From: Patescibacteria group bacterium
GTDB lineage: Bacteria; Patescibacteriota; WWE3; 0-14-0-20-40-13
Direction of reading: 5' to 3'
DNA length: 64,000 nt
Assembly: GCA_018896215.1 (NCBI GenBank)
Contig: JAHINB010000003.1
Coordinates: forward strand, 3,776 to 67,775
Positions 4,308 through 60,957 of this stretch are shown here, piece after piece (position 1 is the first letter of the stretch; every line of letters begins with the position of its first letter). Made by a program: the position numbers and the translations under genes. A model generated the notes under the pieces. The model was not told the DNA's origin, did not search any database, and saw nothing but the letters and a program-made list of their open reading frames with translations.

Positions 4308-4339
4308 TAGGGTTGAACCCCATTTAGGGTTCAACCCTA
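4308..4339. repeat. Perfect 13-bp-arm palindrome TAGGGTTGAACCC-CATTTA-GGGTTCAACCCTA (REP-like, GGGT-N4-ACCC pattern)
   Basis: Read directly from the sequence. It lies between the AAA ATPase and the methyltransferase, with no flanking T-run. Confidence 0.5.
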
Positions 4340-8088: not shown

Positions 8089-8486
8089 GGGGATGATGGG
8101 AATCGATTGGTAAACAAGGCGTAAAAATCAAGCCGAAAATGTTGGGTATTTTCGTTAAGATCCCAACAAAACACAAATGCTGAAGAAGCAAGTTTCGTTC
8201 CTGTAGAAGAGTACGCTTTGGCGTACGCCTAAACAGGTGTTTGGCGCCGTTTTCTTTTAGCGGACGCGCCAGGCACAACCAGAGCTAAAAGAGGTTAGAA
8301 TAGTTATGCAGGTTATCTATATTTTAATCTGATTGGGTTTCCAATCGAACTTATAACCCGGTGAGGGGGTTTTTCTTGTTCTTTTACCCCCAAAATCGCG
8401 ACTTCATTAAAAGAATAAACAAGCTTGTAAAAATTTTTGCGATATTGTTTGTCAACACGGGGGTTCAACTCCCCCCATCTCCACCA
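8089..8486 (+). ncRNA. ssrA: tmRNA (ssrA)
   Basis: The 5' GGGGATG pairs with the 3' CATCTCC-ACCA. The 3' tRNA-like T-arm is GGGGGTTCAACTCCCCC followed by ...CCACCA. An internal tag-like frame ends ...EEYALAYA-TAA, resembling the canonical ...ENYALAA. The gene sits immediately downstream of smpB. Confidence 0.8.
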
Positions 8487-12319: not shown

Positions 12320-12395
12320 TGGTGCCCCCAAGAGGACTCGAACCTCTAACCTTTGCGTCCGCAACGCAATGCTCTATCCATTAAGCTATGGGGGC
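12320..12395 (-). tRNA. tRNA-Arg (anticodon GCG)
   Basis: The reverse complement gives GCCCCCA-TA-GCTT...TTGCG-TTGCGGA-CGCAA...TTCGAGT...TGGGGGC-A-CCA. The anticodon loop is T-T-GCG-G-A, with G37 as expected for CGN decoders. Confidence 0.7.
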
Positions 12396-16447: not shown

Positions 16448-16483
16448 TGGCACTAATATAGTACGAGTGATAATTATTGTCAA
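16448..16483 (-). promoter_or_regulatory. Sigma70-type promoter TTGACA-N17-TATATT for hrcA, overlapping a degenerate CIRCE-like inverted repeat
   Basis: On the minus strand, TTGACA is at 16483-16478 and TATATT at 16460-16455 with a 17-nt spacer. On the plus strand 16448-16474 reads CTGGCACTA-N9-GAGTGATAA against the CIRCE consensus TTAGCACTC-N9-GAGTGCTAA (6/9 and 8/9). Confidence 0.45.
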
Positions 16484-16509
16484 CAGGAATTTTAGGGTAC
16501 AATTGCGAT

Positions 16510-17301
16510 ATGTTCTTAGAGCCAAAAAAGTCCCTGGGGCAAAATTTTTTAAAGTCGCCAAAAGTCTTAAATGACTTTATTCAGGCGTGTGATTTATCGA
16601 AAAACGATGTGGTACTGGAAGTTGGAGCAGGAACTGGGGCAGTGACTAGAGAGCTTGCCGAGGTTGCAGGCAAGGTAATTGCTGTTGAGTTTGATCGAGA
16701 TCTTGTGGAAGCACTTAAGGAATCATTAAAAGATTATTCTAATGTGGAGATCGTTAACGATGATATTTTACAAATTTTCCCTACTTCGCTCGCCGTTGGT
16801 GAGCTACACAGGGCAGGCAATTTAAAGATAGTGGGGTCGATTCCATATAGTATTACTTCGCCATTGATTGGCAAAATTTATGAACTTAAACAAAAGCCAA
16901 CCTTAATCTGTTTAATTGTGCAGTGGGAAGTGGCAAAAAAGATTTGCGCTAAACCGCCCAACGCCAGTTATTTGTCCAATCTTGTGGCAACATTTGGAGA
17001 AGCAAAAATTATAAGAAAAATCCCACCGGGAGCGTTTTGCCCAGCACCACGAGTTGACTCCGCGATTCTACGAATCGTCACGCATAATAAATATCCTGAT
17101 ATCAGGACAAAAGAATTCTCTCAGTTTCTCCATAAGGGGTTTAAACATCCTCGGAAAAAAATCAAGCAGGTTTTCACGCTAGAAGAACTGTTAAAGGTTG
17201 GGATAGATCCAAGCCTCCGCCCCGAAAATCTTTCTTTGCTGAACTGGCTAAACCTTTTTAATTTGGGAGTATCCCATTTGGGATACTCCCATATGAGATA
17301 A
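16510..17301 (+). CDS. rsmA: 16S rRNA (adenine1518/1519-N6)-dimethyltransferase RsmA/KsgA
   Basis: SLGQNFL and VLEVGAGTGAVT motifs. An ATG at 16510 is preferred over the TTG at 16477. Confidence 0.9.
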   Translation: MFLEPKKSLGQNFLKSPKVLNDFIQACDLSKNDVVLEVGAGTGAVTRELAEVAGKVIAVEFDRDLVEALKESLKDYSNVEIVNDDILQIFPTSLAVGELHRAGNLKIVGSIPYSITSPLIGKIYELKQKPTLICLIVQWEVAKKICAKPPNASYLSNLVATFGEAKIIRKIPPGAFCPAPRVDSAILRIVTHNKYPDIRTKEFSQFLHKGFKHPRKKIKQVFTLEELLKVGIDPSLRPENLSLLNWLNLFNLGVSHLGYSHMR

Positions 17302-17364
17302 GGAAATATGAGGGGATCATGCGCGTTTCGTATTTGGTACAATGAATCTAGGAATCAAAAAACT

Positions 17365-18318
17365 ATGAATTTAGAAAATTTACCAGAACATTTGGTGCAG
17401 TCCCCAATTTGGGGAAAATTTAAGACCCAAATGGGAACGCCAGCGTACACCGCGGGCGGTGTGCAATTTACCCTCCACAAATTACCTCTTTTGCCTTACT
17501 ACTTGGCATATGCTCCCAAGATCAATCTCAAGAATATTAACTATGAGGAAGTGGGTAAAGTTGCCGAATCAAAAAATGCGGTAGCCGTGCGTTTTGATGC
17601 ACCTAATGTTGTTTTGGCTGATGATACAGCAAAAAGTCGGGTACTACCCGATTCGGGTAGTACCCGATATAATGTTGTACCTGCGCCAAAAGATACTTTT
17701 GCTAAGTACAATATTCTTTTAGATTTAACTCCAAACGAAGAAACGCTTTTTAAAAATCTTAAATCCAAAACCCGTTACAACATCAGACTTGCCCAAAAAA
17801 ATGGCGTTGTAGTCAAGAAATCGAACGACATAAATACATTTTTAGAGCTCAATCGCAAAACCGCAAAAAGGCAGGGTTTTTTTGTCCACGCAGATTCTTA
17901 TTACAAAACTATGTTCGAGATCTTGCAAAAGGAAGGTTTGGCCTATCTATTTATTGCTTATTTAAATAACGAGCCACTTGTTGCTTGGATTCTAATCTGC
18001 TATCAAGGGGTTTTGTATTATCCTTACGGAGCTTCTTCCGAAAAACACAAAGAGGTTATGGCGTCCAACCTAATGATGTGGGAGGCAATAAAATTTGGAA
18101 AAGAAAAAGGTTGTAAACTGTTTGATATGTGGGGGGCAACTAACGATGAAAAAGACCCCTGGTGGGGGTTTACGAGATTTAAGTTGGGATATGGGGGAGA
18201 GTTGGTTAAATACATGGACTCCTTCGATCTCGTTATTAATAAACCGATATATAGACTATTTAATGGGGTGTATAGATTATTTTGGTTTTTTCTCAATTTA
18301 AAAAAGCTATGGATCTAA
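17365..18318 (+). CDS. FemAB-family aminoacyltransferase (peptidoglycan interpeptide bridge formation), copy 1
   Basis: FemAB-like layout: ...SKTRYNIRLAQKNGV..., acceptor-type fold. It contains the 31-nt REP-like palindrome at 17637-17667 within the reading frame. Confidence 0.7.
   Translation: MNLENLPEHLVQSPIWGKFKTQMGTPAYTAGGVQFTLHKLPLLPYYLAYAPKINLKNINYEEVGKVAESKNAVAVRFDAPNVVLADDTAKSRVLPDSGSTRYNVVPAPKDTFAKYNILLDLTPNEETLFKNLKSKTRYNIRLAQKNGVVVKKSNDINTFLELNRKTAKRQGFFVHADSYYKTMFEILQKEGLAYLFIAYLNNEPLVAWILICYQGVLYYPYGASSEKHKEVMASNLMMWEAIKFGKEKGCKLFDMWGATNDEKDPWWGFTRFKLGYGGELVKYMDSFDLVINKPIYRLFNGVYRLFWFFLNLKKLWI
17637..17667. repeat. 31-nt perfect palindrome TCGGGTACTACCCGA-T-TCGGGTAGTACCCGA inside the FemAB CDS (REP-like)
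   Basis: Read directly from the sequence. A copy identical over 30 of 31 nt occurs at 46435-46465 in an intergenic region. Confidence 0.6.
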
Positions 18319-19208
18319 GGCAAACAAAACACTGGGGAGAGTATTTAAAAGCTTTAGGCTGGGACTCTTTAGAAACAAAAGGCAATAATTTGAGGATAAA
18401 AAAGCTAGGAGTATTGGGGAGTATTATAAAAATCCAAAGACCGCGGGAGCTAAACGAAAAAATTCTCCAACAAATTGCCACAATTGCCCAAAAAGAAAGG
18501 GCAATTATTGTTAAACTAGAGCCTAATTTGGGGTTTAATGACGAAAGATTGCTTGCAAAGTATGGTTATAAAAAAGATACCTGGCCCACAGTTCCTGCCC
18601 ACACTATCATTTTAGACTTGAGTGACAACATTCCCAACACTTACACAAAAGACGCCCGATATTCTATTAGAAAAGCCGAAAAAGCGGGCATTCTCACCAA
18701 GTTTTTTAAAACCACAAACCCCCAAGCTCAAAAAGAATTTTATAAACTCTATAAAGAATCCGCCAAGGGAAAGTTTTTTGTGTCCTCATTTGAAAAGGAT
18801 TTTATTCCCAAATGCCAGGCGCTGGATAAGAGCTCATTTATAGCGTTAGCCTCGTGTGACAACAAGAATAAGGGATTATCCCAAATTTGGGATAATCCCT
18901 ATTCAGGGGCGTTTGTTTGTGTGGTTGGTGATACGGCACACTATCTGCACGCAGGTACCACTCAAGAGGGTAAGGACACAGGCGCCCCTTACAAGTTAAT
19001 CTTGGAGATTTGTCAAAAACTAAAAAAAGATAAAGTTAAGTATTTGGACTTGGAAGGAATTTATGATCCCAGATATCCTAAATTTACCAAAGGTTGGCAG
19101 GGGTTTACCCATTTTAAAAGCCAATTCGGTGGGCGCATCATGGAATTTCCGCCGTCATATACAAAGTACCGTGGCTTGCTTAAACTTCTTGCTAGTTTTA
19201 GCTATTAA
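18309..19208 (+). CDS. FemAB-family aminoacyltransferase, copy 2
   Basis: Paralogous to the upstream gene (...DARYSIRKAEKAG...). Its ATG overlaps the upstream stop. Confidence 0.65.
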   Translation: MDLRQTKHWGEYLKALGWDSLETKGNNLRIKKLGVLGSIIKIQRPRELNEKILQQIATIAQKERAIIVKLEPNLGFNDERLLAKYGYKKDTWPTVPAHTIILDLSDNIPNTYTKDARYSIRKAEKAGILTKFFKTTNPQAQKEFYKLYKESAKGKFFVSSFEKDFIPKCQALDKSSFIALASCDNKNKGLSQIWDNPYSGAFVCVVGDTAHYLHAGTTQEGKDTGAPYKLILEICQKLKKDKVKYLDLEGIYDPRYPKFTKGWQGFTHFKSQFGGRIMEFPPSYTKYRGLLKLLASFSY

Positions 19209-19223
19209 TTGTAGACTTTATGT

Positions 19224-19523
19224 ATGTTCTTTAATAACGCCCTAGCTTATACAATTTCTAACCCCACGCAGTACGGCGATATTGGATCTATTGTCACGAC
19301 CCTTATTCCCAACATCTATATGGTTGCGGGACTGATTTTCTTTTTCCTATTGGTAATGGGAGGGATTAATTATATGATGGCAGGGGGCGATGACAAGGCT
19401 ATTAACAAAGCCAAAAACACCCTCACCGCCGCGGTGATTGGTTTTGCTATAGTATTTGGAAGTTTGTTTGTGATTAAAATTTTAGAAATTGTTTTGGGGA
19501 TTAAATTGTTTTCCATAGGATAA
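19224..19523 (+). CDS. Pilin-like small membrane protein (VirB2/TrbC-like, T4SS-pilin-like), array member 1
   Basis: Hydrophobic helix - GGINYMMAGGDDKAINKAKNTLT - second hydrophobic helix. Shares the core motif with the eight downstream paralogs. Confidence 0.6.
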   Translation: MFFNNALAYTISNPTQYGDIGSIVTTLIPNIYMVAGLIFFFLLVMGGINYMMAGGDDKAINKAKNTLTAAVIGFAIVFGSLFVIKILEIVLGIKLFSIG

Positions 19524-20147
19524 ATGTCTACAAATAATTATTCTGCTAGGTTGATTGCGGTTCTCCTTGGAGTCTTTTTGGGTTTAATTTTTGTGTCCCG
19601 AAGCGTTCTGGCCTATTGCGAGGATAGTACTGGTCAAAGATATGATGTTTTGTGCAATACAGATAGTCAATGTCAACAGGATACAGTTGTTATTGGCGGA
19701 GTCGGGGAGAGAATCTGTATGGTAGGAATTATTTGTCAGCTAAATGTTGCTGCTCCTGTCGGTGCCAGGATGGCTCCAGGTTTTAACAATGCTCTTCCTG
19801 CCTCCGAAAAGGGAGTCTGTGTGTCTTCGTTGGGGTATATAAACATTGCTCGAAACAAAATTGTTGGCGGATACAGTTTAACGGGAACTGGTTTGCGGGA
19901 TCTGATTAACAATGTTACCTTGGCGGTGGGTGTTGTTGTGGGGCTAATATTTTTTGTGATGCTGATTTTGGGTGGAATTGCGTACATGATGAGTAGTGGA
20001 GACGAAAAACAGCTAACTAAAGCTAAGCAACAAATAACCGCAGGACTCATTGGGCTGGTGATTGTTTTTATGGCGTGGTGGGTGGTAAAAATAATTAGTG
20101 TAATTTTTGGAATTAATATTTTACAACCGTCATTTACAGGTCCTTGA
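19524..20147 (+). CDS. Pilin-like protein, array member 2, with an N-terminal Cys-rich extension
   Basis: Signal peptide, a roughly 90-aa region with 7 Cys, then the core ...GGIAYMMSSGDEKQLTKAKQQITAGLIG..., ending PSFTGP-TGA. Confidence 0.6.
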   Translation: MSTNNYSARLIAVLLGVFLGLIFVSRSVLAYCEDSTGQRYDVLCNTDSQCQQDTVVIGGVGERICMVGIICQLNVAAPVGARMAPGFNNALPASEKGVCVSSLGYINIARNKIVGGYSLTGTGLRDLINNVTLAVGVVVGLIFFVMLILGGIAYMMSSGDEKQLTKAKQQITAGLIGLVIVFMAWWVVKIISVIFGINILQPSFTGP

Positions 20148-20150
20148 TAT

Positions 20151-20528
20151 ATGAATATTTTACTTGCAAGAACATTTGATCTTTTTGATAAAACTAAACC
20201 CGCTGATGGTATTTTCGGAGTGATCCCAGGCTCTCAAAAAGATGCCGCCCTTGGAGGTAGTGCGAATTTGTTTGTTGAGACAATAAGTTATGTGGTTATT
20301 GCTGCGGGAGTTGTTGCGGGGCTGATACTATTGGGAATGTTGATAATGGGAGCAATAACTTACATGACGAGTGCGGGAGACGAAAAGGTTTTAACTAGAG
20401 CCAAACAACAGATGACTAACGCCGTTATTGGGTTTGTTATTATAGCTATGTCTTATTGGATTGTTAGAATTATTGGTACAATTTTTGGATTACCGAATAT
20501 TTTAAAACCAACATTTATAGGTCCATAA
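20151..20528 (+). CDS. Pilin-like protein, array member 3
   Basis: Core ...GAITYMTSAGDEKVLTRAKQQMTNAVIG..., ending PTFIGP-TAA. Confidence 0.6.
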   Translation: MNILLARTFDLFDKTKPADGIFGVIPGSQKDAALGGSANLFVETISYVVIAAGVVAGLILLGMLIMGAITYMTSAGDEKVLTRAKQQMTNAVIGFVIIAMSYWIVRIIGTIFGLPNILKPTFIGP

Positions 20529-20531
20529 AAT

Positions 20532-20891
20532 ATGACAAAAAACTTATTGGCGATAACAGAATTTAAACCGGATAAATATATTGGTGGGGTGCTTCCTAGC
20601 CAGAGTTCCGGCGCTACCCAGCCCGCCGAGTCAATTTTTGGTCAAACGGTGCAGTATATAATTTCTGCTGCATTTGTCATCTCGGGACTTGCCTTTCTGG
20701 TGACTTTTATTATGGGGGCGTTTACTTACCTATCCAGCGCTGGGGATGAGAAGCAGTTGGATAAGGCCAAAAAGACTATGACTAATGGCGTGATAGGCTT
20801 TGTAATTATGGCAGTAACATTTTTGATCGTTAACCTATTAGAGAATATCTTTGGGATAGCGCTTACTACTTTTACATTTGAAGGACTTTAA
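20532..20891 (+). CDS. Pilin-like protein, array member 4
   Basis: Core ...GAFTYLSSAGDEKQLDKAKKTMTNGVIG... Confidence 0.6.
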   Translation: MTKNLLAITEFKPDKYIGGVLPSQSSGATQPAESIFGQTVQYIISAAFVISGLAFLVTFIMGAFTYLSSAGDEKQLDKAKKTMTNGVIGFVIMAVTFLIVNLLENIFGIALTTFTFEGL

Positions 20892-20897
20892 AATATT

Positions 20898-21512
20898 ATG
20901 ACTACTAATTATGGGAATTTAAATCCAGTTGGGTACTTTGGTAGCGCCATAAAAACTGGGCAATTTGTTTCGGTGATTATTACGGTAATAACTGTTGTTG
21001 CTGGGCTGTACTTTTTAGTTAACCTTGCCATGGGGGGTTTAAGCTACGCCACAAGTGCGGGGGACGAAAAGGAGCTTGCCAAGGCTAGAAAAACACTTAG
21101 CAACGCGCTATTGGGGTTTCTTCTTGTGGTATCTTCATATTTTATTTCTGGTTATGTGGCTTTAAGACTTGGAATGCAAGATATTCTAAAACCTGCCATT
21201 AATACCGCAAGCAATACCTCCCTTGTATGTGTAAATATTACTATGACTCCAGCGAACCCGTCTACCACAGTTGCCTCTTATGATATATATCTGCACTCTG
21301 CTGGTGTAGACTTTTACAAATCACACTGGACAAAGACGGTTGGTGAGGATGTCATATCTTTAAGTTTTTCTAAATCTGCATTTCCAGTTGTAGCAGTGAC
21401 AGCACTTGTGGTACCTATTATTCCAGGTGCTGGAGCCCAGCCTCCGAAAATAGGAATGTTGGGCGCGTATGATGCGAATGGATGCTACTTTACAGAATTT
21501 GATAATTTGTAA
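20898..21512 (+). CDS. Pilin-like protein, array member 5, with a roughly 90-aa C-terminal extension
   Basis: Core ...GGLSYATSAGDEKELAKARKTLSNALLG..., followed by an extra domain (LVCVNITMTPANPST...). Confidence 0.6.
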   Translation: MTTNYGNLNPVGYFGSAIKTGQFVSVIITVITVVAGLYFLVNLAMGGLSYATSAGDEKELAKARKTLSNALLGFLLVVSSYFISGYVALRLGMQDILKPAINTASNTSLVCVNITMTPANPSTTVASYDIYLHSAGVDFYKSHWTKTVGEDVISLSFSKSAFPVVAVTALVVPIIPGAGAQPPKIGMLGAYDANGCYFTEFDNL

Positions 21513-21518
21513 TCAATT

Positions 21519-21869
21519 ATGGAGAAAAAATTTCTAACATTTAGCCTAGGGGATGTAAAAAACAACGCTATACCTAACGCAGTTCCGCAAACTGGTAGTA
21601 ATACATATACTGGGAACATAGAGTCTATCATCAGTGTTATTATTGGAACGATAACAATTATTGCTGGTGTTGCCTTGTTGCTCTACTTGGCGATGGGGGC
21701 GTTTACCTATATGACAGCAGGGGGGGACGAAAAGGCGGCGACCAAAGCTAAAGGCATGATCACGGATGCGGTGATTGGACTGATTATAGTTGTTGCCAGC
21801 ATGACCATTGCGACAATTTTATTAAAGATTTTTGGATTAGATATTAAAGCCCTGCCCTGGTATTCCTAA
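21519..21869 (+). CDS. Pilin-like protein, array member 6
   Basis: Core ...GAFTYMTAGGDEKAATKAKGMITDAVIG... Confidence 0.6.
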   Translation: MEKKFLTFSLGDVKNNAIPNAVPQTGSNTYTGNIESIISVIIGTITIIAGVALLLYLAMGAFTYMTAGGDEKAATKAKGMITDAVIGLIIVVASMTIATILLKIFGLDIKALPWYS

Positions 21870-21871
21870 TT

Positions 21872-22219
21872 ATGAAATTAGCTGTTATTACAAACCCCGC
21901 TCTTCCCTCCGGATCGTCGGTGCAAACCGCCTCGGGTTTTGCTAACTATGTTTCGATTGCTCTGCGCACCATGTACATTATCGGTGGTGTTGCCATGACC
22001 GTAATTTTAGTTTATGGGGGACTCATGTACATTACCAGCGTCGGCGACGATAAAGCGCTTTCTAAAGCTAAAAAAATTATGACCGACGCTATTATTGGCA
22101 TTATAATTTTGGCTTCTACCATTCCCATCGCTAAAATTTTAGAAAGTATTTTTGGCTTAAATATCTTTAATATTAGTTTTCCGGCTTTTTCTGATTTTAT
22201 TGGAGTTGGAGGAACTTAA
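21872..22219 (+). CDS. Pilin-like protein, array member 7
   Basis: Core ...GGLMYITSVGDDKALSKAKKIMTDAIIG... Confidence 0.6.
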   Translation: MKLAVITNPALPSGSSVQTASGFANYVSIALRTMYIIGGVAMTVILVYGGLMYITSVGDDKALSKAKKIMTDAIIGIIILASTIPIAKILESIFGLNIFNISFPAFSDFIGVGGT

Positions 22220-22220
22220 G

Positions 22221-22922
22221 ATGCTTGATTTAACTCAATTGATCGCCCCAGTTTACGCCGCCGTTTCTGGCGGGACAGTAGATACCAGCTCCTGGCAACC
22301 GGAAAACTTTAAAGGGCTGATAGAAATCGCCATTCGGACGCTTTTTGTGGTTGGGGGCGTAGCCTTTGTGATTTTGTTTTTAGTTGGCGCAATACGATAT
22401 ATCACTAGCGGGGGAGATGTTAAAGCGGTGGATGGGGCAAAGAAAAATATTACCGCGGCAATTGTGGGGGTTTTGATTTTAGCTTCGGTTTACACTGTGG
22501 CGTGGTTTTTAAATAGGACCCTGGGCGCGCCGACTTTTGGTGGAGTTGTTAGTTGGACAGGGAGTGGGGGTGGGTACACCAGTCCCCCTGGAGTTGGCGC
22601 AATCCCAAGTGGTTGCGCACCAGATAATTGTCCATTTGATGGTAGAACTGGCAATAACCGTTGTTTTGGAGGCTGGACTTTTGGTTGCGATTTAGTTTCT
22701 GATCCCAAACAAAAATCTAAGTGCTTTAGATTAAGCAATGCTTCTGGTGGATGGGATTCGGGAAGTCACAACAAATGGATCTTAAATGCTTGTCAAGTTC
22801 CGGGAGAAACAGATCCAGCAAAAACTCTTGTCGATTTTCCGGTTGGTGATTGGGGTGATGTCTGTGTTCCTCATGATCAAGGCGTGAGTTCTAAATCTTG
22901 TGATTGTGGACAATGCTTGTAG
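22221..22922 (+). CDS. Pilin-like protein, array member 8, with a C-terminal Cys/Gly/Trp-rich domain
   Basis: ATG at 22221 preceded by a GGAGGAA SD. Core ...GAIRYITSGGDVKAVDGAKKNITAAIVG..., then a roughly 120-aa tail with 10 Cys (GCAPDNCPFDG...CDCGQCL). Confidence 0.6.
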   Translation: MLDLTQLIAPVYAAVSGGTVDTSSWQPENFKGLIEIAIRTLFVVGGVAFVILFLVGAIRYITSGGDVKAVDGAKKNITAAIVGVLILASVYTVAWFLNRTLGAPTFGGVVSWTGSGGGYTSPPGVGAIPSGCAPDNCPFDGRTGNNRCFGGWTFGCDLVSDPKQKSKCFRLSNASGGWDSGSHNKWILNACQVPGETDPAKTLVDFPVGDWGDVCVPHDQGVSSKSCDCGQCL

Positions 22923-22996
22923 TTCCGAATGCTTGCAAAGAGATTAGTTGTTAGTTACAATGATTAAAGTTTAACTTGGGAGGTGAGTAAATTACT

Positions 22997-23410
22997 ATGA
23001 ACTTCAAAAAAATACTCGGATCGGTGTCGCTTGCCACAGCAACCGCCTTGTCTTTGGTCAAAGGTGTGTTTGCGGCTGGTGTGGATTTGTCCATACAAAC
23101 AGGAACTTTTCCAACTGGTTCGCAAAGGTCGTTTGGAAGCTTTTTTAGCTTTGCCATCAGAATACTGTTTGCCTTGGGCGGAATCCTGATGCTGGTCTTT
23201 TTGATTATGGGTGGGATTCGCTACATTACCAGCGGAGGCGACAAATTGCAGGCGCAAGGCGCCAGAGACATGATTACCAACGCTTTAATTGGAATCATTA
23301 TTATTGCCGCATCTTACGCTATAGCAACTTTGCTGAATAGCTTGTTTGGAATTGATATCTTTAATGCTACAATCAGTATTCCAATGACCAATCCTGTTGT
23401 TTCACCATAA
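22997..23410 (+). CDS. Pilin-like protein, array member 9
   Basis: Strong GGGAGGTGA SD, a clear signal peptide (MNFKKILGSVSLATATALSLVKGVFA), and core ...GGIRYITSGGDKLQAQGARDMITNALIG... Confidence 0.6.
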   Translation: MNFKKILGSVSLATATALSLVKGVFAAGVDLSIQTGTFPTGSQRSFGSFFSFAIRILFALGGILMLVFLIMGGIRYITSGGDKLQAQGARDMITNALIGIIIIAASYAIATLLNSLFGIDIFNATISIPMTNPVVSP

Positions 23411-28047: not shown

Positions 28048-28122
28048 TGGCTCCGCGGCCTGGATTTGAACCAGGAACCATCTCGTTAACAGCGAGCCGC
28101 GCTACCGTTGCGCCACCGCGGA
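28048..28122 (-). tRNA. tRNA-Asn (anticodon GTT)
   Basis: The reverse complement gives TCCGCGG-TG-GCGC...GCTCG-CTGTTAA-CGAGA...CCTGG-TTCAAAT-CCAGG-CCGCGGA-G-CCA. Confidence 0.85.
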
Positions 28123-31824: not shown

Positions 31825-32198
31825 ATAAGTTTGTAACGCTTTCGCTTCGCGAAACATTTTAGTATTTTTTCTCTAATCTTGTTATAGAAACTAGTTGACT
31901 TGGCTAGTTTAATAATTTAATGTAAGGTTGTTAGGATTACATTACAATATCCCTCGCCGAGGGAAAAAGCAGATGCTTAACTATAAATTGGCAAAATTAA
32001 TGACCACCTGTTTTTGGGTTTTTACCGAGGGTGGTTTTTTAGTCTCTAGCACTTTAAAAACTGAATATCTCATTAATTAAGCGGTAGCAAAATGCTCATC
32101 TCTTTTGAGTTGGCTATTTTGCTATCGCTTAAGCGTGGCTCCACAATTACTTTGTGGAAAGACAATTCCACTTTCAGTTCAGTTTTAGGAGGTTTTCC

Positions 32199-33287
32199 AT
32201 GTCTCGCTCAAAGATCGCTGTGTTGTTCGGCTTATCCCTTCTCGTGCTCATGAGTTCGTGCGCGAGTCCTGCCACCCCACAAGTGGTGGAAAAGATCGTT
32301 GAGAAGGTGGTCGTGGTCACTGCACAACCAGTTCCTGTAATCAAGCTCGTGCATCTCAATGTCCCGCTAGGGTGGGTAAACAATGACGAGTTCGTGGCGC
32401 TACAGGTGGCTCAAGCCAAGGGGTTCTATGCCGAGGCAGGCCTCGATGTCAACTTGATCTCTGGCGGTGGCTCCACCGGGTTCGATCCTCTGGTTGCCAT
32501 CATGGGTTTCGATGACAGTATTCGGATCGGTGTGCCGGCGGCAATGAGCTTGGTCGTCAAGGCCAAGTCGGAGGGTATTGATGTGGTAGCAGTGGCTGCC
32601 CTGACTCAAGAAGAGCCGGGCGGTTTCATTGCTCTTACCAAGTACGCCCCCCAGGCCACCGGGCTCTGTGACTTTAAGGGCAAGGTCGTCTCCATGCAAA
32701 CGGAGGCGACATGGTATGTAGATGCACTCGGAAAGCAATGCGTCACCGGTGCCCTAGTTGCTGGCGAGGACTTTACCGTCGTGCCGGCTGGTTGGACACC
32801 TGATTGCCTTCTGGCCACCGGCGCCAACCGTTGCGATTTTTATTGTGGTTGGGCGACCAACCAGGTGTTCGGTCTCGAGCAACAGGGGTTGAAGCTCGGA
32901 GTGGACTTCCAGTTCTTTCTGGCGAGCAAGTATCTGCCGTTTCACTATGCTGATGTCATCGTGGTGAACGGCGCCTGGGCCAGGAAAAACCCGGAGATCG
33001 TTCGTGGCTTCGTTCAAGCCTCGATGAAAGGGTTGCAATATACCCTCGATCATCCTGACGAAGCGGTACAGATTTCTGGTGCGGTACCGGGGATGGATCT
33101 GGCTCACGCCACCTGGCGTATCCCGATTCAGAACAGACTCGTTACCAACGAAGACACCGCCAAATTCGGTGTTGGGTACATCGATGTGGGCAAGGTTCAG
33201 GATATGATCAACCTTCTCGCCGAGAAGGACCAGATCAAGACCGAGTTCGATGCCAGCACCGTCGTCGACAGCTCGTATCTGAAGTAG
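32199..33287 (+). CDS. ABC transporter substrate-binding lipoprotein, NMT1/THI5-like (NitT/TauT family); part of the GC-rich island
   Basis: Lipobox LLVLMSSC and an NMT1-like periplasmic binding fold. Its GC-rich codon usage is unlike the flanking genes. Confidence 0.7.
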   Translation: MSRSKIAVLFGLSLLVLMSSCASPATPQVVEKIVEKVVVVTAQPVPVIKLVHLNVPLGWVNNDEFVALQVAQAKGFYAEAGLDVNLISGGGSTGFDPLVAIMGFDDSIRIGVPAAMSLVVKAKSEGIDVVAVAALTQEEPGGFIALTKYAPQATGLCDFKGKVVSMQTEATWYVDALGKQCVTGALVAGEDFTVVPAGWTPDCLLATGANRCDFYCGWATNQVFGLEQQGLKLGVDFQFFLASKYLPFHYADVIVVNGAWARKNPEIVRGFVQASMKGLQYTLDHPDEAVQISGAVPGMDLAHATWRIPIQNRLVTNEDTAKFGVGYIDVGKVQDMINLLAEKDQIKTEFDASTVVDSSYLK

Positions 33288-33320
33288 TTCTATGTTCTAC
33301 TATGAAATATGGAGGGTGAA

Positions 33321-34094
33321 ATGAACGCACTCGGGATTCAAGATCTGACCGTACGGTTCGGTAATCTAATTGCTCTTTCGCAAGTATCGTTGACAGTGCA
33401 AGAGCATGAGATCGTCGCCCTTATCGGTCCATCTGGATGCGGAAAGTCCACCCTCTTGCGTGCAACAGTCGGCATTGTGCCTGGCATGGTGCCGACTGCT
33501 CACTTAGAAGGCGGGATTGACCTCTTTGGAAAATCGCCGATCGAACGCCACAACGGCGAGGTCGATATGGTTTTCCAAGAGTCTTGTCTCCTGCCCTGGA
33601 GAACAACCCAAGCCAATATCAGGTTGGGTTTGGAAATTCTTGGCAGGAATGCAAATAACGGCACTTTACCGACCATCCTGGAAGCCATTGGGCTGACAGA
33701 CTTTGCCAATTGTAAACCCCGCGCGCTATCAGGTGGTATGCGCCAACGCGCCAGCTTGGCCACATCACTTGTGACTCACCCAAAACTCTTACTCATGGAT
33801 GAGCCTTTTGCCAACCTCGACTCCTTAACCAGAGAACAGATGTGGCAACTCGTAGAGCATCTACATTTGGATGATAAAATCCAAGCCGCATTGTTGGTAA
33901 CCCACTCCATTGAAGAGGCTGTTGCTTTGGCTGATCGGGTACTGGTAATGAGTGAGCGACCCGGTCAAATCATCGGTGAAGTGGTTGTAAGACTTCCTCG
34001 TCCTCGGATCACTCCAGAGGGGTTGTTGGTCGAAGGCTTTGGGGCGGTAGCCAACCAAGTCCGTCGTTTCATCCGCCACGGAGGTGAAGTATGA
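33321..34094 (+). CDS. ABC transporter ATP-binding protein (NitT/TauT family); GC-rich island
   Basis: GPSGCGKSTLLR, LSGGMRQRASLA and LLLMDEPFANLD motifs. SD GGAGGG precedes the ATG at 33321. Confidence 0.85.
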   Translation: MNALGIQDLTVRFGNLIALSQVSLTVQEHEIVALIGPSGCGKSTLLRATVGIVPGMVPTAHLEGGIDLFGKSPIERHNGEVDMVFQESCLLPWRTTQANIRLGLEILGRNANNGTLPTILEAIGLTDFANCKPRALSGGMRQRASLATSLVTHPKLLLMDEPFANLDSLTREQMWQLVEHLHLDDKIQAALLVTHSIEEAVALADRVLVMSERPGQIIGEVVVRLPRPRITPEGLLVEGFGAVANQVRRFIRHGGEV

Positions 34095-34834
34095 AAAGGT
34101 CACAATGGCTGGTACCGCTGGTGACCCTCACCTTCCTGCTTGTGGCCTGCGAAGTGTCACTGACGCTGGCGCGAGTATCAACCTTCATTTTCCCCAAGCC
34201 AACGCTGATCGTCAAAGCGTTGGTTGAAAACTGGGGTTGGATCGTTGCCAACTTGCAAGTCACAGCCATGGAAGCAGTTGTCGGTTTCGCCCTTAGTATT
34301 GTGCTTGGGATAACACTGTCGACGGTTTGTCTGTTTGTCCCGCAAGCCGAGAACCTCGTCGTGCCTTTCGCCATCGCCATTCGCAATGTGCCGTTTGTTG
34401 CTTTGGCGCCGATTCTCTTCATGACGATGGGATATGGTCCCTGGCCCAAGATCATCATCGTTATGATCGTTAGTTTCTTTCCAATCATGACCAATCTTAC
34501 GGCTGGATTTGCAAGCGCAGAAGTCGCTCAAAAGGAAAGATTCTTTGTATGGCGAGCGACCCGTTGGCAGATGTTTGTCAAGCTTCAACTGCCTTCGGCT
34601 ATCCCGTATTTTGTGGCAGGGTTGGAAATCGCGGTTAGTAACATCATCATTGCCGCGATCGTTGGCGAATTGATGGGAACGACCAAGGGCTTAGGATTGG
34701 TCATTATTATGGCCGTGTCCCAGTACCGGTTTCCTTTGCTGATGGCAACCGTAGTGGTTACGACAGCACTGTCAATTGTGACTACATGGTTGCTACGCCA
34801 GGCAATGCGAATTGCCTTTTCACCTTGGAATTAA
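34091..34834 (+). CDS. ABC transporter permease (BPD_transp_1, NitT/TauT family); GC-rich island
   Basis: Six TM helices and an EAA-like loop region. Its start overlaps the ATPase stop. Confidence 0.8.
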   Translation: MKRSQWLVPLVTLTFLLVACEVSLTLARVSTFIFPKPTLIVKALVENWGWIVANLQVTAMEAVVGFALSIVLGITLSTVCLFVPQAENLVVPFAIAIRNVPFVALAPILFMTMGYGPWPKIIIVMIVSFFPIMTNLTAGFASAEVAQKERFFVWRATRWQMFVKLQLPSAIPYFVAGLEIAVSNIIIAAIVGELMGTTKGLGLVIIMAVSQYRFPLLMATVVVTTALSIVTTWLLRQAMRIAFSPWN

Positions 34835-34846
34835 GGAGAGTACACC

Positions 34847-35764
34847 GTGGACTACCAATCAATCCTGGATGTTTGTAGAAGTCAGTTTGAGGCTGATGCG
34901 GCGCGAACCGCATCTGTCGGAGGTTCCGGTACCCTTGCACTGGACAAGCGTGGAGGCATCGGTTTTCCCGAGGCCCTCACTTGTGTTTGCAACGATCGGA
35001 TTCTTCGATTCGAAGAGGTGTCAACGCCATTTGGGGATGTTCCGATGGTCAAACTCTTCGCAGTCAACGGCCAACCGGTCGTGCGGATTCCGATGCACGG
35101 TTGGCGATTGCCAGTGGCGACGCTCGAACACACTCAAGCAACCTTTTGGCTACTGGATCAGCTTGGCGTTCATCAAGTGCTCGTTGACGCTAGCGTTGGT
35201 GGGATCGGAGCCAAACCCATGGATGTCGTCATCCCCGATGATGTCTACAACCACGAGCCTGCCAAGATCGCTATGGCAAAGTTGGCCTTTGAATTGGGAA
35301 GAGACCCCTGGGTTCGGATGTATCAACCCTTCTGTCCCCGCTTAAGAAGCAAGTTGGTTACCTCAGTTCGTCAGGTTAAGACGGAAGGTCATGAACTTGG
35401 CGATCTCGTCGACGGCGGGGTCTACTGGACCACGCCTCTTGGTCCGTTTGAAACGGCTTTCGAGATAGCCACCTTCAAGACTCTTGGGGCTACCATCGTT
35501 GGCCAATCATCGGGGCAGGAAGCCCTAGCCGCTCGTATTCTTGGAATGTGTTTGGCTGTGGCCAACCCGGTTGTTAACTTTGCCGAAGGGCTCAACAACG
35601 CAGGCTGGTCTGGGGACAAAGGCATGGATTCCATGTACGAAGCCATCTCTATGCCCATGGCCCTCATGGTTTACTACACTCTTGAGCGAATCGTCAGCCA
35701 GACCCGCACCTGCGACTGCCAAACCATTGCTCACAGCCCTGATTTAGCTGGGCTGACATCGTAA
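34847..35764 (+). CDS. PNP/MTAP-family nucleoside phosphorylase-like protein; GC-rich island
   Basis: The C-terminal ...GATIVGQSSGQEALAARILGMCLAVANPVVNFAEG... parallels the MTAP/PNP family-1 active-site region (G..VG.T.VPE..LA.E.G.C...A.V.N.A). GTG start with an AAGGAG SD. Confidence 0.5.
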   Translation: MDYQSILDVCRSQFEADAARTASVGGSGTLALDKRGGIGFPEALTCVCNDRILRFEEVSTPFGDVPMVKLFAVNGQPVVRIPMHGWRLPVATLEHTQATFWLLDQLGVHQVLVDASVGGIGAKPMDVVIPDDVYNHEPAKIAMAKLAFELGRDPWVRMYQPFCPRLRSKLVTSVRQVKTEGHELGDLVDGGVYWTTPLGPFETAFEIATFKTLGATIVGQSSGQEALAARILGMCLAVANPVVNFAEGLNNAGWSGDKGMDSMYEAISMPMALMVYYTLERIVSQTRTCDCQTIAHSPDLAGLTS

Positions 35765-35783
35765 TTAGGATTAGGAGGAACCT

Positions 35784-36314
35784 GTGTCCAACATTCAAGT
35801 CCTAGCTACCGAGAGGCAAATCAGGCAAGCCGTGAGAAGGATTGCTCGAGAAGTCTCTCGGCGGTACCAGGAGGAGTCGATTCTTCTGGTTGGAGTTCTC
35901 ACCGGCGCTTTCGTTTTCATGGCGGATCTGGCGAGGGAGCTCTACCGTATGGGGATGACAGATGTCGAAATCGAGTTCATCGACATATCTTCGTATAGTG
36001 GTACGGAGTCTGGGCAGATCCGTTTCGATCGTGACCTGACCGTTCCCATCAGCGGTCGGCATGTGGTGATTGTGGAGGATATCATCGATACCGGGGCAAC
36101 GCTGGCGTTCCTGTTGAAGCTCCTCGAAGTCAGGGAACCAGCCAGTTTGATTGTAGTTGCCCTGTTCAACAAGGTCACCCGGCGGGTTGAAACCCTCCCG
36201 TCAGAACGGATCATAACGGGAATTGACCTGCCTAACAAGTTCGTGGTCGGCTACGGTCTTGACCGTAACGGAAAGTTTCGGCATCTCCCTTTTGTGGGGA
36301 TTGTCGCAAGTTGA
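35784..36314 (+). CDS. hpt: Hypoxanthine(-guanine) phosphoribosyltransferase; GC-rich island
   Basis: VVIVEDIIDTGATLAFLL PRPP motif and an HPRT-like length. GTG start with an AGGAGGAA SD. Confidence 0.85.
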   Translation: MSNIQVLATERQIRQAVRRIAREVSRRYQEESILLVGVLTGAFVFMADLARELYRMGMTDVEIEFIDISSYSGTESGQIRFDRDLTVPISGRHVVIVEDIIDTGATLAFLLKLLEVREPASLIVVALFNKVTRRVETLPSERIITGIDLPNKFVVGYGLDRNGKFRHLPFVGIVAS

Positions 36315-42175: not shown

Positions 42176-42484
42176 ATGCACTATATCTATCTGGTGCGTT
42201 GTGTGGATAATTCCTTGTACTGTGGGCAAACCACGGATTTGTCTCGTCGTGTCAATGAGCATAATTTTGATGGTAAAAAATCTGCCAAGTACACCAAAGG
42301 CAGAAGACCAGTAATTCTCGTCTATTCTGAAGAATTTGCCACATTCTCTGAAGCCTTAAAACGGGAATTAAAAATTAAACGCCTTCCAAAAGCAAAAAAG
42401 GAGGTCTTGGTTAATTCGGGATACTCCCATGAAAAACGCAATTATTTTATTGGAATTGTCCCAAATGGGACAGACCCGATTTAG
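42176..42484 (+). CDS. GIY-YIG nuclease family protein (second small stand-alone copy)
   Basis: IYLVRCVDNSLYCGQTTDLSRRVNEHN is a GIY-YIG motif. Confidence 0.65.
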   Translation: MHYIYLVRCVDNSLYCGQTTDLSRRVNEHNFDGKKSAKYTKGRRPVILVYSEEFATFSEALKRELKIKRLPKAKKEVLVNSGYSHEKRNYFIGIVPNGTDPI

Positions 42485-45766: not shown

Positions 45767-46309
45767 ATGAAAGTGCTTATAATCAATGGTTCACATAGAA
45801 AAGGAAATACGGATATTATTACTAACAAAGTAAAAGAAGAGCTCGTAATCAACCAAATAGAAACAATGGAACTTGTTCTAAGAGATATAGAAATAAAACT
45901 TCCCGATGGTTGTGAGCAGTGTGCGAATGGAGGGGTTTGTCCAAATGTAAAAGACGAATTTTCGGAAAATATTGAACCTGCAATAAGAGATTACGATATT
46001 TATATTATTGCAACTCCAACTTGGAGTGATAATGTCACACCCCTAACGAAAATATTTTGGGACAGAATTGTTTCTTGGTGTAGCGAAGATAAAATGTATT
46101 TAAAGAATAAAAAACTAGCGGTGATAACTCACGGAATGGCAAATGATAAATCCTGGGACAATGTTATAAACTGGGTTAAAAGCATTTGTGTTTGGGAACA
46201 ATGCAAATTTGGTAGTAGTTTAACTGCAAAATCCGGAGGAAAAGTTGGCGATATTGAACTGAAAGAAGGTAAAGTAAAGAGCTTTGTTTTGGAATTAATA
46301 AAGCAATAA
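45767..46309 (+). CDS. Flavodoxin-like NAD(P)H-dependent FMN reductase / iron-sulfur flavoprotein-like
   Basis: MKVLIINGSHRKGNT... flavodoxin-like fold plus a Cys cluster CEQCANGGVCP. Confidence 0.6.
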   Translation: MKVLIINGSHRKGNTDIITNKVKEELVINQIETMELVLRDIEIKLPDGCEQCANGGVCPNVKDEFSENIEPAIRDYDIYIIATPTWSDNVTPLTKIFWDRIVSWCSEDKMYLKNKKLAVITHGMANDKSWDNVINWVKSICVWEQCKFGSSLTAKSGGKVGDIELKEGKVKSFVLELIKQ

Positions 46310-46367: not shown

Positions 46368-46434
46368 GCTACAACTACAACATTAAAACCGCACTTCAAA
46401 TAATGCTTTAATGGCAAGATATTATCGGGTACTA

Positions 46435-46465
46435 CCCGATTCGGGTAGTACCCGCATTCCGACAA
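46435..46465. repeat. REP-like palindrome TCGGGTACTACCCGA-T-TCGGGTAGTACCCG(C); second copy of the element at 17637
   Basis: 30/31 identical to 17637-17667. It lies in the intergenic leader of the NTase-deaminase operon. Confidence 0.6.
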
Positions 46466-46501: not shown

Positions 46502-46526
46502 AGTCGTCGACAATTTGTCGACGACT
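46502..46526. promoter_or_regulatory. 25-nt perfect palindrome AGTCGTCGACAA-T-TTGTCGACGACT (candidate operator)
   Basis: Read directly from the sequence. It is unique in the window and lies 23 nt upstream of the NTase start. Confidence 0.4.
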
Positions 46527-46548: not shown

Positions 46549-46845
46549 ATGATATCAAGACAAAAGATAGAAAAAATTAGAGAAATTTGTCAGTCACAAC
46601 CAATTGAATTTTTGGGTCTTTTTGGTTCCATGGCAAGGCAGGAACAAACCAAAACCAGCGATGTAGACTTACTTATAAGGTATCAAAATACCAGCCATCC
46701 AAGTATTTCCGACCATGTAAGAATAGAAGATCAGTTAGAAAATGCTTTAAAAAGAAATGTTGATTTGGTAACCGAAAAATCTTTAAACGAGAGGTTAAAA
46801 CCCTATGTTTACAAAGACCTTATAACCATATATGGAAAAAGATGA
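46549..46845 (+). CDS. Minimal nucleotidyltransferase (MntA/pol-beta superfamily)
   Basis: FLGLFGSMARQEQTKTSDVDLLI fits the GS-x9-13-DxD NTase motif. The 98-aa size is typical of MNT-type antitoxin-like NTases. Confidence 0.7.
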   Translation: MISRQKIEKIREICQSQPIEFLGLFGSMARQEQTKTSDVDLLIRYQNTSHPSISDHVRIEDQLENALKRNVDLVTEKSLNERLKPYVYKDLITIYGKR

Positions 46846-47303
46846 CGCTGTATATTTGGATGATAAAGAATACCTTAAGCTTGCTATAGAAAACTCTAAA
46901 AAATCAACGGATGCAGGTAATTTTCCCGCCGGGGCATTGGTGGTAAAAAACGAAAAGATCCTATCTTCCACTGTTAGTTCTCCTTACCCTGGTCTATTTC
47001 ACGCCGACTCAAAAGCAATTACGGAAGCTTTTAGTAAAAACGGTTATTTAGAAGGGTCAACACTATACGTTGGTTTAGAATCTTGTTTAATGTGGTACTA
47101 GCATAGCCTACTGGGCAGGGATTGAAAGGATTGTTTATGCCGTTTCCAAATCTGAAGTGTCTGGTAATTATTACGAAATGTCAGAGAGCAATCGTCACTT
47201 GTTCGAGAGATTCAACAGAAAAATAAAGTTCGTACATATTAGGGGGTTGGAAAAGGAAGCCTTAAAGATTATTAGGCAATGGGAGATAAAGCAAAGCAAC
47301 TAA
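46832..47303 (+). pseudogene. Cytidine/deoxycytidylate (TadA-like) deaminase disrupted by a +1 frameshift near 47090
   Basis: The first frame reads ...PAGALVVKNEKIL...LFHADSKAI...TLYVGLESCLM then TAG. The +1 frame continues CGTSIAYWAGIERIVYAVSKSE..., matching the deaminase zinc motif region (HAE...PCxxC...AG...R.VYG). His-Ala-Asp replaces the usual His-Ala-Glu. Confidence 0.55.
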
Positions 47304-58658: not shown

Positions 58659-58707
58659 ATTCGGGTTCGTCCCATTCGGGTTCGTCCCATTTGGGACGAA
58701 CCCGAAT
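58659..58707. repeat. REP element: direct repeat ATTCGGGTTCGTCCC x2 followed by the inverted partner TTTGGGACGAACCCGAAT (hairpin)
   Basis: Read directly from the sequence, immediately downstream of the RAYT gene. Confidence 0.7.
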
Positions 58708-58713
58708 TAGGAA

Positions 58714-59343
58714 CTAAATAAATATTCCTTGTTTTGGATTATATTCTATTTCTTTAGCGTAAGAATCTATCTTACTCCAGTTAGTAGATTGAACTAAAGT
58801 TGGATGTAGGTTTAACCAGGGTAAATCTCGGTTATTTATGTAATTTTGTAACGAAGAGTACTTATATTCAGACGACCCACCAACAATCCCCGACTTGTAT
58901 GGGTTTAAGTGAATATATCTTCCTACATGGATAAGTTGAGCTTCTGTAATTATTGGAACTGCTCTGTAACACCCTTGGATTAAAGGTCCCTCCCTTGAAT
59001 ATTTCTCATTAAAGAACCCCGCATACACGGAGAGAATTCTTTTGGAAAATTCTTTTATTCCATAGTCTACTAAATTCTTACATAAAATGTGAAAGTGGTT
59101 GGGCATTAGGCAATATGCATAGAGCTCAAGTTGTCCAAAAACGCTGTTGGCTGGAATTTCTACTTCTTTCTTAGCAATTATTCTGCTTTCTTTAAAATCT
59201 TTAGTTAGGTATTTCTTAAGAAGGTAGATAAAGAATATGTAATCTTCGTGATCCAAAAACATCTCACACCTGTTAATTCCACGACCGTAAATGTGGAAAG
59301 TAATATCTGGCTTGTGGGTTTTACAGCGATTTTTATATGGCAT
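58714..59343 (-). CDS. REP-associated tyrosine transposase (RAYT; IS200/IS605-like HUH Y1 transposase)
   Basis: HUH motif YCLMPNHFHIL and C-terminal RYIHLNPYKSGIV (compare Y..NP..AGLV of IS200/RAYT). REP hairpins flank it on both sides. Confidence 0.75.
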   Translation of the reverse strand: MPYKNRCKTHKPDITFHIYGRGINRCEMFLDHEDYIFFIYLLKKYLTKDFKESRIIAKKEVEIPANSVFGQLELYAYCLMPNHFHILCKNLVDYGIKEFSKRILSVYAGFFNEKYSREGPLIQGCYRAVPIITEAQLIHVGRYIHLNPYKSGIVGGSSEYKYSSLQNYINNRDLPWLNLHPTLVQSTNWSKIDSYAKEIEYNPKQGIFI

Positions 59344-59348
59344 TTTTC

Positions 59349-59380
59349 ATTCGGGTTCGTCCCATTTGGGACGAACCCGA
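59349..59380. repeat. REP element hairpin ATTCGGGTTCGTCCCA-TT-TGGGACGAACCCGA
   Basis: Read directly from the sequence, 5 nt upstream of the RAYT start codon. Confidence 0.7.
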
Positions 59381-59996: not shown

Positions 59997-60052
59997 TTAG
60001 GGAGAGTCCCTAAAAACGGGATCAGAGGTATTTAAGGGACTCTCCCTAAAAA
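59997..60052. repeat. Inverted repeat TTAGGGAGAGTCCCTAAAAA ... TTTAAGGGACTCTCCCTAAAAA (long imperfect hairpin)
   Basis: Read directly from the sequence, in the intergenic region upstream of tlyA. No T-run follows the stem. Confidence 0.4.
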
Positions 60053-60906: not shown

Positions 60907-60957
60907 TCGGGTGAGACCCCGATACAAAAAGCAAATACCCTTTGGGGTCTCACCCGA
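60907..60957. repeat. REP-like hairpin TCGGGTGAGACCCC - 23-nt loop - GGGGTCTCACCCGA
   Basis: 14-bp perfect arms that share the TCGGGT...ACCCGA ends with the other REP-like elements. It lies just downstream of secF. Confidence 0.5.

Follow-up and report, generated by a model that had tools for sequence, protein, structure and literature searches.

A palindrome in frame in a FemAB-family gene of a WWE3 bacterium is probably a copy of a REP-type element family accompanied by RAYT-like transposase genes

A perfect 31-nt palindrome lies in frame within a FemAB-family gene (here FemAB1) on a 64,000-nt stretch of DNA (the window) from a bacterium of the WWE3 lineage of Patescibacteria. We consider it likely that this palindrome is a copy of a family of WWE3/Patescibacteria elements of the repetitive extragenic palindrome (REP) type, whose members are G+C-rich hairpins of 30 to 55 nt built from GGG-N5-CCC arms. 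Together with REP-associated tyrosine transposase (RAYT)-like genes, these elements constitute a REP/RAYT system that is new to the candidate phyla radiation (CPR), while the intragenic habit of its palindromes is already known from REPs and from Rickettsia palindromic elements (RPEs). An earlier note on the window had proposed a REP/REPIN-like family with variable cores, and this proposal holds: the copies are dispersed and flank RAYT-like genes, and those from metagenomes fall into five core families.

The palindrome (TCGGGTACTACCCGA-T-TCGGGTAGTACCCGA; full sequence, TCGGGTACTACCCGATTCGGGTAGTACCCGA) was confirmed at positions 17637 to 17667. Its arms read TCGGG-TACTA-CCCGA and TCGGG-TAGTA-CCCGA around a central T, and a weaker palindromic extension reaches from 17625 to 17679. 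Zero matches to the 31-nt palindrome at three or fewer mismatches were obtained in 100 dinucleotide shuffles. Folded as RNA, the element forms a hairpin with 15-bp arms and a free energy of -34.8 kcal/mol (z-score, -9.9), which fits the short, G+C-rich, stable hairpins of the REP type. The host gene is located on the plus strand at 17365 to 18318; the mechanically called open reading frame (ORF), which begins at 17308 and ends at 18318, matches Pfam FemAB (E value, 4e-30) as well as Acetyltransf_6, and the true start is likely the ATG at 17365, where the identical NCBI protein P0001 begins. Within the protein, the palindrome is translated as SRVLPDSGSTR (residues 91 to 101; K-SRVLPDSGSTR-YN in context). 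An AlphaFold2 model of FemAB1 reached a mean predicted local distance difference test (pLDDT) score of 93.5, and residues 78 to 102 were modeled as coil with the lowest confidence of the whole protein (72 to 81). The segment that contains the palindrome-encoded peptide varies more in length than any other in the family, from 23 to 70 residues between the RFDxPN and PKxTF motifs. Two of the three frames of the TACTA element are open, and the frame used in FemAB1 yields a stretch rich in Pro, Asp, Ser, and Gly. According to the model, the element thus sits in a part of the gene that is predicted to encode a disordered surface loop.

Hairpins of this kind are strongly overrepresented in the window. 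Ten perfect hairpins (stem of at least 13 bp and loop of at most 30 nt) were counted, compared to a mean of 0.05 expected from 40 dinucleotide shuffles, and all ten share one architecture, x-GGG-N5-CCC-y / loop / y'-GGG-N5'-CCC-x'. The 5-nt cores are TACTA, AGTAT, ATTAT, TTCGT, TTGAA, AGAGT, and TGAGA. Variable cores had been noticed before but were taken to be 4 nt long; a scan for the suggested GGGT-N4-ACCC arms gave 2 matches, which is not above chance, the actual spacing being GGG-N5-CCC. The motif GGGNNNNNCCC occurs 27 times in the window (expected, 11.3 +/- 3.3), and 20 of these sites belong to family hairpins. As RNA, the family members fold with -24 to -37 kcal/mol (z-scores, -4.6 to -9.9). 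An Rfam search of the window assigned no family to any of the hairpins and matched only one tmRNA and two tRNAs. The intergenic twin of the FemAB1 palindrome, described earlier as identical at 30 of 31 positions, was recovered with that identity and location, but at 46425 to 46455 and not at 46435 to 46465. Its last base is C, which leaves a 14-bp stem, and it lies between an FMN-reductase ORF (45767 to 46309) and a Polbeta nucleotidyltransferase ORF (46549 to 46845).

Copies of the same family were also found outside the window. Screening species-representative genomes revealed 12 copies of GGGTA[CG]TACCC..GGGTA[CG]TACCC in the WWE3 metagenome-assembled genome PEYT01. Most of them fill short gaps directly past stop codons; a RAYT homologue (L031) has one copy on each side, the Toprim domain of RecR contains another, and a further copy belongs to the C-terminal tail of a NUDIX ORF. 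Outside WWE3, the scan of the genome collection returned only single sites or tandem repeats, which were taken as chance matches, and a scan of viral contigs returned one G+C-rich tandem repeat and nothing else. For metagenomes, the pattern TCGGG-N5-CCCGA-N-TCGGG-N5-CCCGA was used, in which pairing of the cores is not forced. It produced 32 matches on 29 contigs, all of low G+C content except for a G+C-rich tandem repeat (L054). The two cores were exact reverse complements in 29 of the 32 matches, with a chance of 1/1024 for each. They represent five discrete families (ATACT, TTCCA, TACTA, AGGAT, and TTTCA), which unrelated loci have in common. The ATACT core with identical outer bases is found in genes for YchF, cysteinyl-tRNA synthetase (CysRS), a kinase, and a PMT-type protein and at several intergenic sites; likewise, the TACTA core with identical outer bases is found in FemAB1, in RecR, in the NUDIX tail, and at the flanks of RAYT genes.

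A candidate partner enzyme is encoded in the window itself. The RAYT-like Y1/HUH transposase gene is located on the minus strand at 58714 to 59343, between the FtsJ and RecJ genes, and its product contains the motifs PNHFH and YIHLNP. The ORF matches Pfam Y1_Tnp (E value, 6e-5), and its sole NCBIfam match is NF047646, REP-associated tyrosine transposase (E value, 1.6e-11; below the curated cutoff). Identical palindromes with a TTCGT core bracket the gene. Seven nucleotides past its stop codon, immediately 3' of the gene, lies a three-arm REP (58659 to 58707) with two copies of ATTCGGGTTCGTCCCA plus an inverted arm, and 8 nt before its start codon lies a second REP (59351 to 59380), directly 5' of the RAYT gene and on the 3' side of FtsJ. 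The palindromes that had been listed at 58659 and 59349 are therefore real, as 58659/58674-58707 and 59351-59380 flanking the Y1_Tnp ORF. A profile built from five RAYT homologues matched a single entry of the Protein Data Bank (PDB), 4ER8, the E. coli TnpA-REP; the alignment covers the region from the HUH motif through the tyrosine motif (YIYINP in the chain; YIHLNP in the profile consensus), and no IS200/IS608 TnpA structure was matched. The five-sequence profile was required for this result, since a phmmer search of the PDB with the single RAYT protein gave spurious Arc matches only. All five homologues have the HUH and Tyr motifs (PNH[FY]H and Y-I-H-x-N-P) without variation.

The gene order FtsJ-RAYT-RecJ is common to the window and L066, whose RAYT protein is 55% identical, and this conserved position is the behavior typical of vertically inherited RAYTs. 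Altogether, 781 RAYT homologues were found, and those with a named source come mostly from Patescibacteria or WWE3 and are annotated merely as "transposase." The L031 homologue is flanked by TACTA-core palindromes on both sides, and those of L057 and L061 are flanked on one side, all three being Patescibacteria/WWE3 contigs; TTCCA-core copies lie on both sides of the homologues of L053/L065. Since different core families flank RAYT genes in this manner, each core family appears to have a RAYT of its own, which is the pattern of the REPtron. No perfect hairpin of at least 10 bp was present near the gene at the RAYT loci L067 and L069. A further Patescibacteria genome (GCA_049322615.1; L068, 9936 to 10914) carries palindromes with AGGTT-N-AACCT arms around a RAYT homologue, one of them within the gene, and a second RAYT homologue is found about 6 kb from the first. 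This locus suggests that REP/RAYT pairs with lineage-specific hairpins may be widespread in Patescibacteria.

REPs typically lie outside genes. Here, the palindromes at 17637 to 17667 and 18871 to 18900 are both in frame within genes, and about 8 of 19 independent metagenome loci (~40%) are inside long, intact ORFs in which Pfam domains remain on either side of the palindrome; the remaining copies are mostly in short gaps past stop codons. In the metagenomes, copies reside in genes for YchF, cysteinyl-tRNA synthetase, three PMT-type glycosyltransferases, a kinase, FemAB1, and FemAB2, so that members of the family are found in the loops of many housekeeping genes. In the window, the second FemAB-family paralogue (FemAB2; plus strand, 18282 to 19208) contains a perfect 30-nt palindrome (AGGGATTATCCCAAA/TTTGGGATAATCCCT; 18871 to 18900), which encodes KGLSQIWDNPY in a hypervariable beta-hairpin loop. 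In a near-identical organism (GCA_043827225.1, JBDRPI010000005.1; L004), the contig ends at the equivalent of ~18794, 77 nt before this palindrome, and the contig end may be an assembly break caused by it. Intragenic copies use all three phases and encode RxxP[DE]SGxxR, IGILPNREYP, or SGYSRFGSIP, and in three-arm copies each 16-nt unit moves the phase by one. Because all three phases are used, there is no sign of selection on the peptide, and the idea of a peptide motif (RxxPDSGxxR) was rejected. An alignment of PMT-type proteins (L046, L049, L042, and L055; 24 to 28% identical) displayed apparently invariant N-R-x-x-P-x-S-G-x-x-R columns that are encoded by the palindrome.

The FemAB1 copy is not young. 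Orthologues with 79% protein identity (L001 to L003) carry the same 31-mer at the same site, and in orthologues with 67% identity (L005/L044) the palindrome is present in register as GGGGTACTACCCC-GAT-GGGGTAGTACCCC. In the latter, both arms have G:C in place of the C:G pairs beside the GGG/CCC blocks, so that the palindrome is kept, and the element is read in another frame, giving GYYPDGVVP instead of SRVLPDSGSTR. Both sub-families, the window type and the L005 type, occur as dispersed copies in PEYT01. The palindrome is absent from the orthologues of L006 (65% identity), L034 (58%; loop shorter by 15 residues), and L036 (59%; loop shorter by 8 residues). Palindrome-free orthologues thus have different, shorter loops and do not encode the same peptide by the same DNA, and the repeat reading of the earlier note survived this comparison. 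The FemAB1 orthologue of L006 was also considered as a decayed remnant (same 17-codon length; outer bases TCGGTA...GACCAGA), but the similarity is too weak for such a claim. Another FemAB orthologue, P0019, has a 35-residue insert at the same loop; this insert contains no palindrome and is unrelated.

It had been suggested that the copy was either a recent length-neutral insertion or a palindrome under unusual constraint. It is neither recent nor length neutral: it is base-perfect in an orthologue whose FemAB1 coding sequence (L001) is 76% identical to that of the window, and the FemAB1 loop exceeds that of the outgroup orthologues by about 15 residues. Unusual constraint received modest support. 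Contig groups that are 98 to 100% identical (L005/L044, L039/L041/L052, L046/L050, L042/L049, and L053/L065) are uninformative about constraint. Third codon positions of the window and L001 genes are 56% identical, and the palindrome accounts for the longest stretch of identity, 33 nt, compared to 17 nt for the next one. A run of at least 33 nt was obtained in 2.2% of shuffles of the codon columns, and the probability of 11 consecutive synonymous-identical codons is 0.0017.

In the simplest reading of these alignments, a single insertion would have occurred in a lineage ancestral to those of the window, L001, and L005, with the palindrome persisting while the frame and the protein changed; alternatively, the two sub-families may have been inserted independently into a hotspot in FemAB1. 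On the former reading, the TACTA element would have entered once in the common ancestor of the window lineage and the lineages of the 79% and 67% orthologues, the enzyme would tolerate the encoded stretch, and the gene would remain functional. Very high coding density with little intergenic room could be the reason for the many intragenic copies. Copies may be mobilized, or may formerly have been mobilized, as single-stranded hairpins by the cognate RAYT, a route also suggested for the REPs of E. coli and for IS200/IS605 elements. Since all three phases are used and the paired changes in L005 keep the palindrome, maintenance probably acts at the level of DNA and not of the peptide. The palindrome would be kept perfect by a constraint on DNA or RNA, such as binding by the RAYT or another protein or a function of the hairpin, or by correction from arm to arm or from copy to copy, and not by selection on the peptide.

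The same loops were found to carry different palindromes in different genomes. The beta-hairpin loop of FemAB2 contains an ATTAT element in the window, a three-arm AGGAT element in L005, and a TTTCA element in L006, which differ in length and phase, and no palindrome is present in FemAB2 of L034 and L036. Similarly, the PMT-type proteins have ATACT or TTCCA copies at residues 172 to 179 in three phase arrangements. Such sharing of loops calls for a hotspot of insertion, a strict filter for tolerance, or replacement in situ. Different REPs at about the same recB site have been described in two Xanthomonas species (Di Nocera et al., PMC3733652). We tentatively suggest, while giving it clearly less credence than not, that the coding loops of FemAB1, FemAB2, and the PMT-type proteins could be long-lived "landing pads." Hairpins in these loops would be kept perfect and replaced repeatedly by the current core family of the resident RAYT under selection on DNA or RNA (e.g., RAYT binding or antisense termination), and the loop peptide would be a by-product that is free to change its frame.

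Several points weigh against assigning the FemAB1 palindrome to a REP-type family. The 64-kb window has just 2 TACTA copies and no RAYT cognate to them. The RAYT proteins score only 44 to 53 bits with the NCBIfam model (E values, 1e-11 to 1e-14) compared to a curated cutoff of 80, and the E value of the match to 4ER8 is merely 0.005. The statistic for constraint is based on one informative orthologue pair, and the different cores and phases in the same loops are not predicted by simple random insertion. Moreover, neither transposition events nor sites that are filled in one strain and empty in a close one were seen, and no target-site signature was apparent.

Other explanations were considered as well. 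Palindromes could have been made and renewed locally at fragile sites that encode loops, either through fold-back or template switching during synthesis or through gene conversion between the arms, with the variable cores arising by drift while the arms were kept complementary. Such an origin would account for cores, lengths, and phases that differ at the same FemAB2 loop (window, L005, and L006) and likewise at one loop shared by distant PMT homologues, for three-arm versions, which suggest duplication of a unit, and for the paired changes in FemAB1 of L005 that preserve the complementarity of the arms. However, it cannot yield the same 31-mer at many loci; unrelated genes and intergenic gaps share identical cores and outer bases, and every core family flanks a RAYT gene. 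We therefore regard a purely local origin as unlikely. Alternatively, the hairpin might be a cis-acting signal or protein-binding site that is selected for itself (an antisense terminator, an element of mRNA stability or pausing, or a dimer site for a GGG-N5-CCC-binding protein) and spread by selection, with the link to RAYTs being incidental. The FemAB1 copy has remained perfect across 24% DNA divergence, intergenic copies are mostly directly past stop codons, and effects of E. coli REPs on termination and mRNA stability have been reported (PMC3733652). In the antisense direction, each of the two FemAB palindromes runs into a T-rich tail (CTTTTTGCTG and TATTCTTGTT), which fits the simple pattern of an intrinsic terminator; at the sequence level, this fit is a lead and not evidence. 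The sense strand 3' of the FemAB1 hairpin, in contrast, reads UAUAAUGUUG and has no T-run, which does not fit an intrinsic terminator. Furthermore, copies lie in the loops of unrelated genes in either orientation and in any phase, and no Rfam family matches. As the mobile-element explanation neither requires nor excludes a function of the hairpin, the two are partly complementary and not exclusive; selection for such a site as the sole cause seems improbable to us.

The proposal that the palindrome is a coding sequence that is palindromic by coincidence, a conserved peptide motif (R-x-x-P-D-S-G-x-x-R), or an artefact of assembly is effectively refuted, and we attach almost no weight to it. Several intragenic copies do encode the similar RxxP[DE]SGxxR, but the same DNA yields unrelated peptides in three phases, all synonymous positions are identical, and the chance expectation of matches is zero. 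Assemblies from ENA, JGI, Logan, and NCBI, which are independent of each other, also contain the identical palindrome. Membership in a REP-type family therefore remains the explanation that we favor for the FemAB1 palindrome.

The other family members of the window are distributed between genes or at gene ends. Besides the FemAB2 palindrome, the earlier note had overlooked a second member within 1.3 kb of FemAB1, TGGGAGTATCCCA-TT-TGGGATACTCCCA at 17264 to 17291, which overlaps the 3' end of the KsgA/RrnaAD ORF (16477 to 17301) and provides its last codons. A segment of about 90 bp with this palindrome (region 17200 to 17365) is absent from the contig of the 79% orthologue L001, in which the KsgA and FemAB1 genes are separated by 9 nt. 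Two hairpins with 23-nt loops are located near the RAYT locus: TTAGGGAGAGTCCCT / loop / AGGGACTCTCCCTAA at 59997 to 60049, between the PsbP-like and FtsJ genes, and TCGGGTGAGACCCC / loop / GGGGTCTCACCCGA at 60907 to 60957, between the SecF and PsbP-like genes. The latter, which has a 14-bp stem, had been listed previously and is real, as is the listed hairpin at 4308 to 4339 (TAGGGTTGAACCC / CATTTA / GGGTTCAACCCTA), which lies 17 nt past the stop codon of an AAA_14/DUF4143 ORF. The palindrome listed at 2472 exists but is merely a weak mini-palindrome of 11 nt. Between the convergent GIY-YIG and PAP2 ORFs, a degenerate compound copy (TTCGGGATACTCCCA ... TGTCCCAAATGGGACAGACCCGA) was found at 42414 to 42480; it consists of an ATACT-type arm and a TGTCCCA-AA-TGGGACA mini-hairpin.

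Some features of the window lie outside this family. The palindrome AGTCGTCGACAA-T-TTGTCGACGACT at 46502 to 46526 has a 12-bp stem without the GGG-N5-CCC architecture and is located 22 nt upstream of the Polbeta-type ORF (46549 to 46845), which is followed by a small cytidine-deaminase-like ORF (46832 to 47101); this palindrome looks like an operator. An island at 32000 to 36300 has a G+C content of 0.52, compared to ~0.38, and contains genes for an NMT1/THI5-like binding protein, an ABC ATPase, a permease, a PNP_UDP_1 phosphorylase, and a phosphoribosyltransferase; it may have been acquired horizontally. In the relatives L006 (12004 to 16678) and L034 (2361 to 7096), the two FemAB genes are followed by a series of small T4SS_pilin-like (PF18895) genes, and the window has a corresponding run of small ORFs at 19224 to 23410. 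The tmRNA gene and the two tRNA genes (Rfam gathering-score matches) are at 8089 to 8486, 12323 to 12395, and 28051 to 28122.

If the assignment is correct, the partnership of REPs and RAYTs extends to the CPR, in which homologous "transposase" genes are common (781 matches) but generically annotated. The large share of repeats inside presumably essential genes of these very gene-dense genomes, as in Rickettsia, suggests that selfish palindromes generally end up this way when genomes are reduced. REP hairpins can break assemblies and add lineage-specific loop peptides to conserved enzymes, and peptides encoded by repeats can spuriously anchor protein alignments and mislead conservation scores. 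Orthologous sites with different cores and frames constitute a natural data set on the movement and maintenance of REPs, which to our knowledge have never been directly observed.

Comparison with known systems places the elements closest to REPs while also revealing differences. RPEs are palindromic selfish repeats that are inserted in frame in housekeeping genes and are compatible with fold and function (Ogata et al. 2000, as cited in PMC10969869 and PMC3733652). Like them, the elements described here occupy a small, gene-dense host genome and are placed in frame at permissive positions of unrelated protein-coding genes. In contrast to elements of the RPE-1 type, which are ~100 to 150 bp long and encode 30 to 50 residues, the core here is 31 nt and encodes 10 to 11 residues (at most ~55 nt and perhaps ~18 residues with the weak extension). 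No dedicated transposase is known for RPEs, whereas the elements of WWE3 flank RAYT-like genes. With IS200/IS605 elements, which have a Y1 TnpA and subterminal hairpins, the system shares an HUH/Y1 enzyme and DNA hairpins as likely recognition structures. However, its gene lies between identical palindromes and not between distinct left and right ends, it is putatively single-copy and syntenic across genomes, and its profile matches TnpA-REP and no IS608/IS200 TnpA structure.

The REPtrons of Proteobacteria (E. coli TnpA-REP, 4ER8; Pseudomonas REPINs; and GTAG/CGTC-tagged REPs, PMC3733652) also consist of short, G+C-rich, dispersed elements that lie mostly just 3' of genes. As in these REPtrons, there are several sub-families, each flanking a syntenic, putatively single-copy HUH/Y1 gene that matches RAYT models; dimers and three-arm arrangements occur, and some copies overlap stop codons or sit inside ORFs. 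Intragenic REPs have been documented (PMC3733652), but the intragenic share is much higher here (~8 of 19 independent sampled loci). The host phylum, Patescibacteria (WWE3), is different as well, and a literature search, which was not exhaustive, found no paper describing REPs or RAYTs in Patescibacteria/CPR. REP stems carry a conserved GTAG or CGTC tetranucleotide at one end (PMC3733652), whereas no such tag is present at the stem foot here; GTAG lies within the TACTA core (GGGTAGTACCC) and CGTC within the TTCGT core (GGGTTCGTCCC), and the ATACT and TTCCA families have neither. The palindromes of WWE3 further differ in being perfect, with a loop of 0 to 3 nt and a GGG-N5-CCC dyad of its own in each arm, and the RAYT proteins are ~210 amino acids long and score below the NCBIfam cutoff. 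With these differences, the system acts like a REP/RAYT system and, by most tests, is one.

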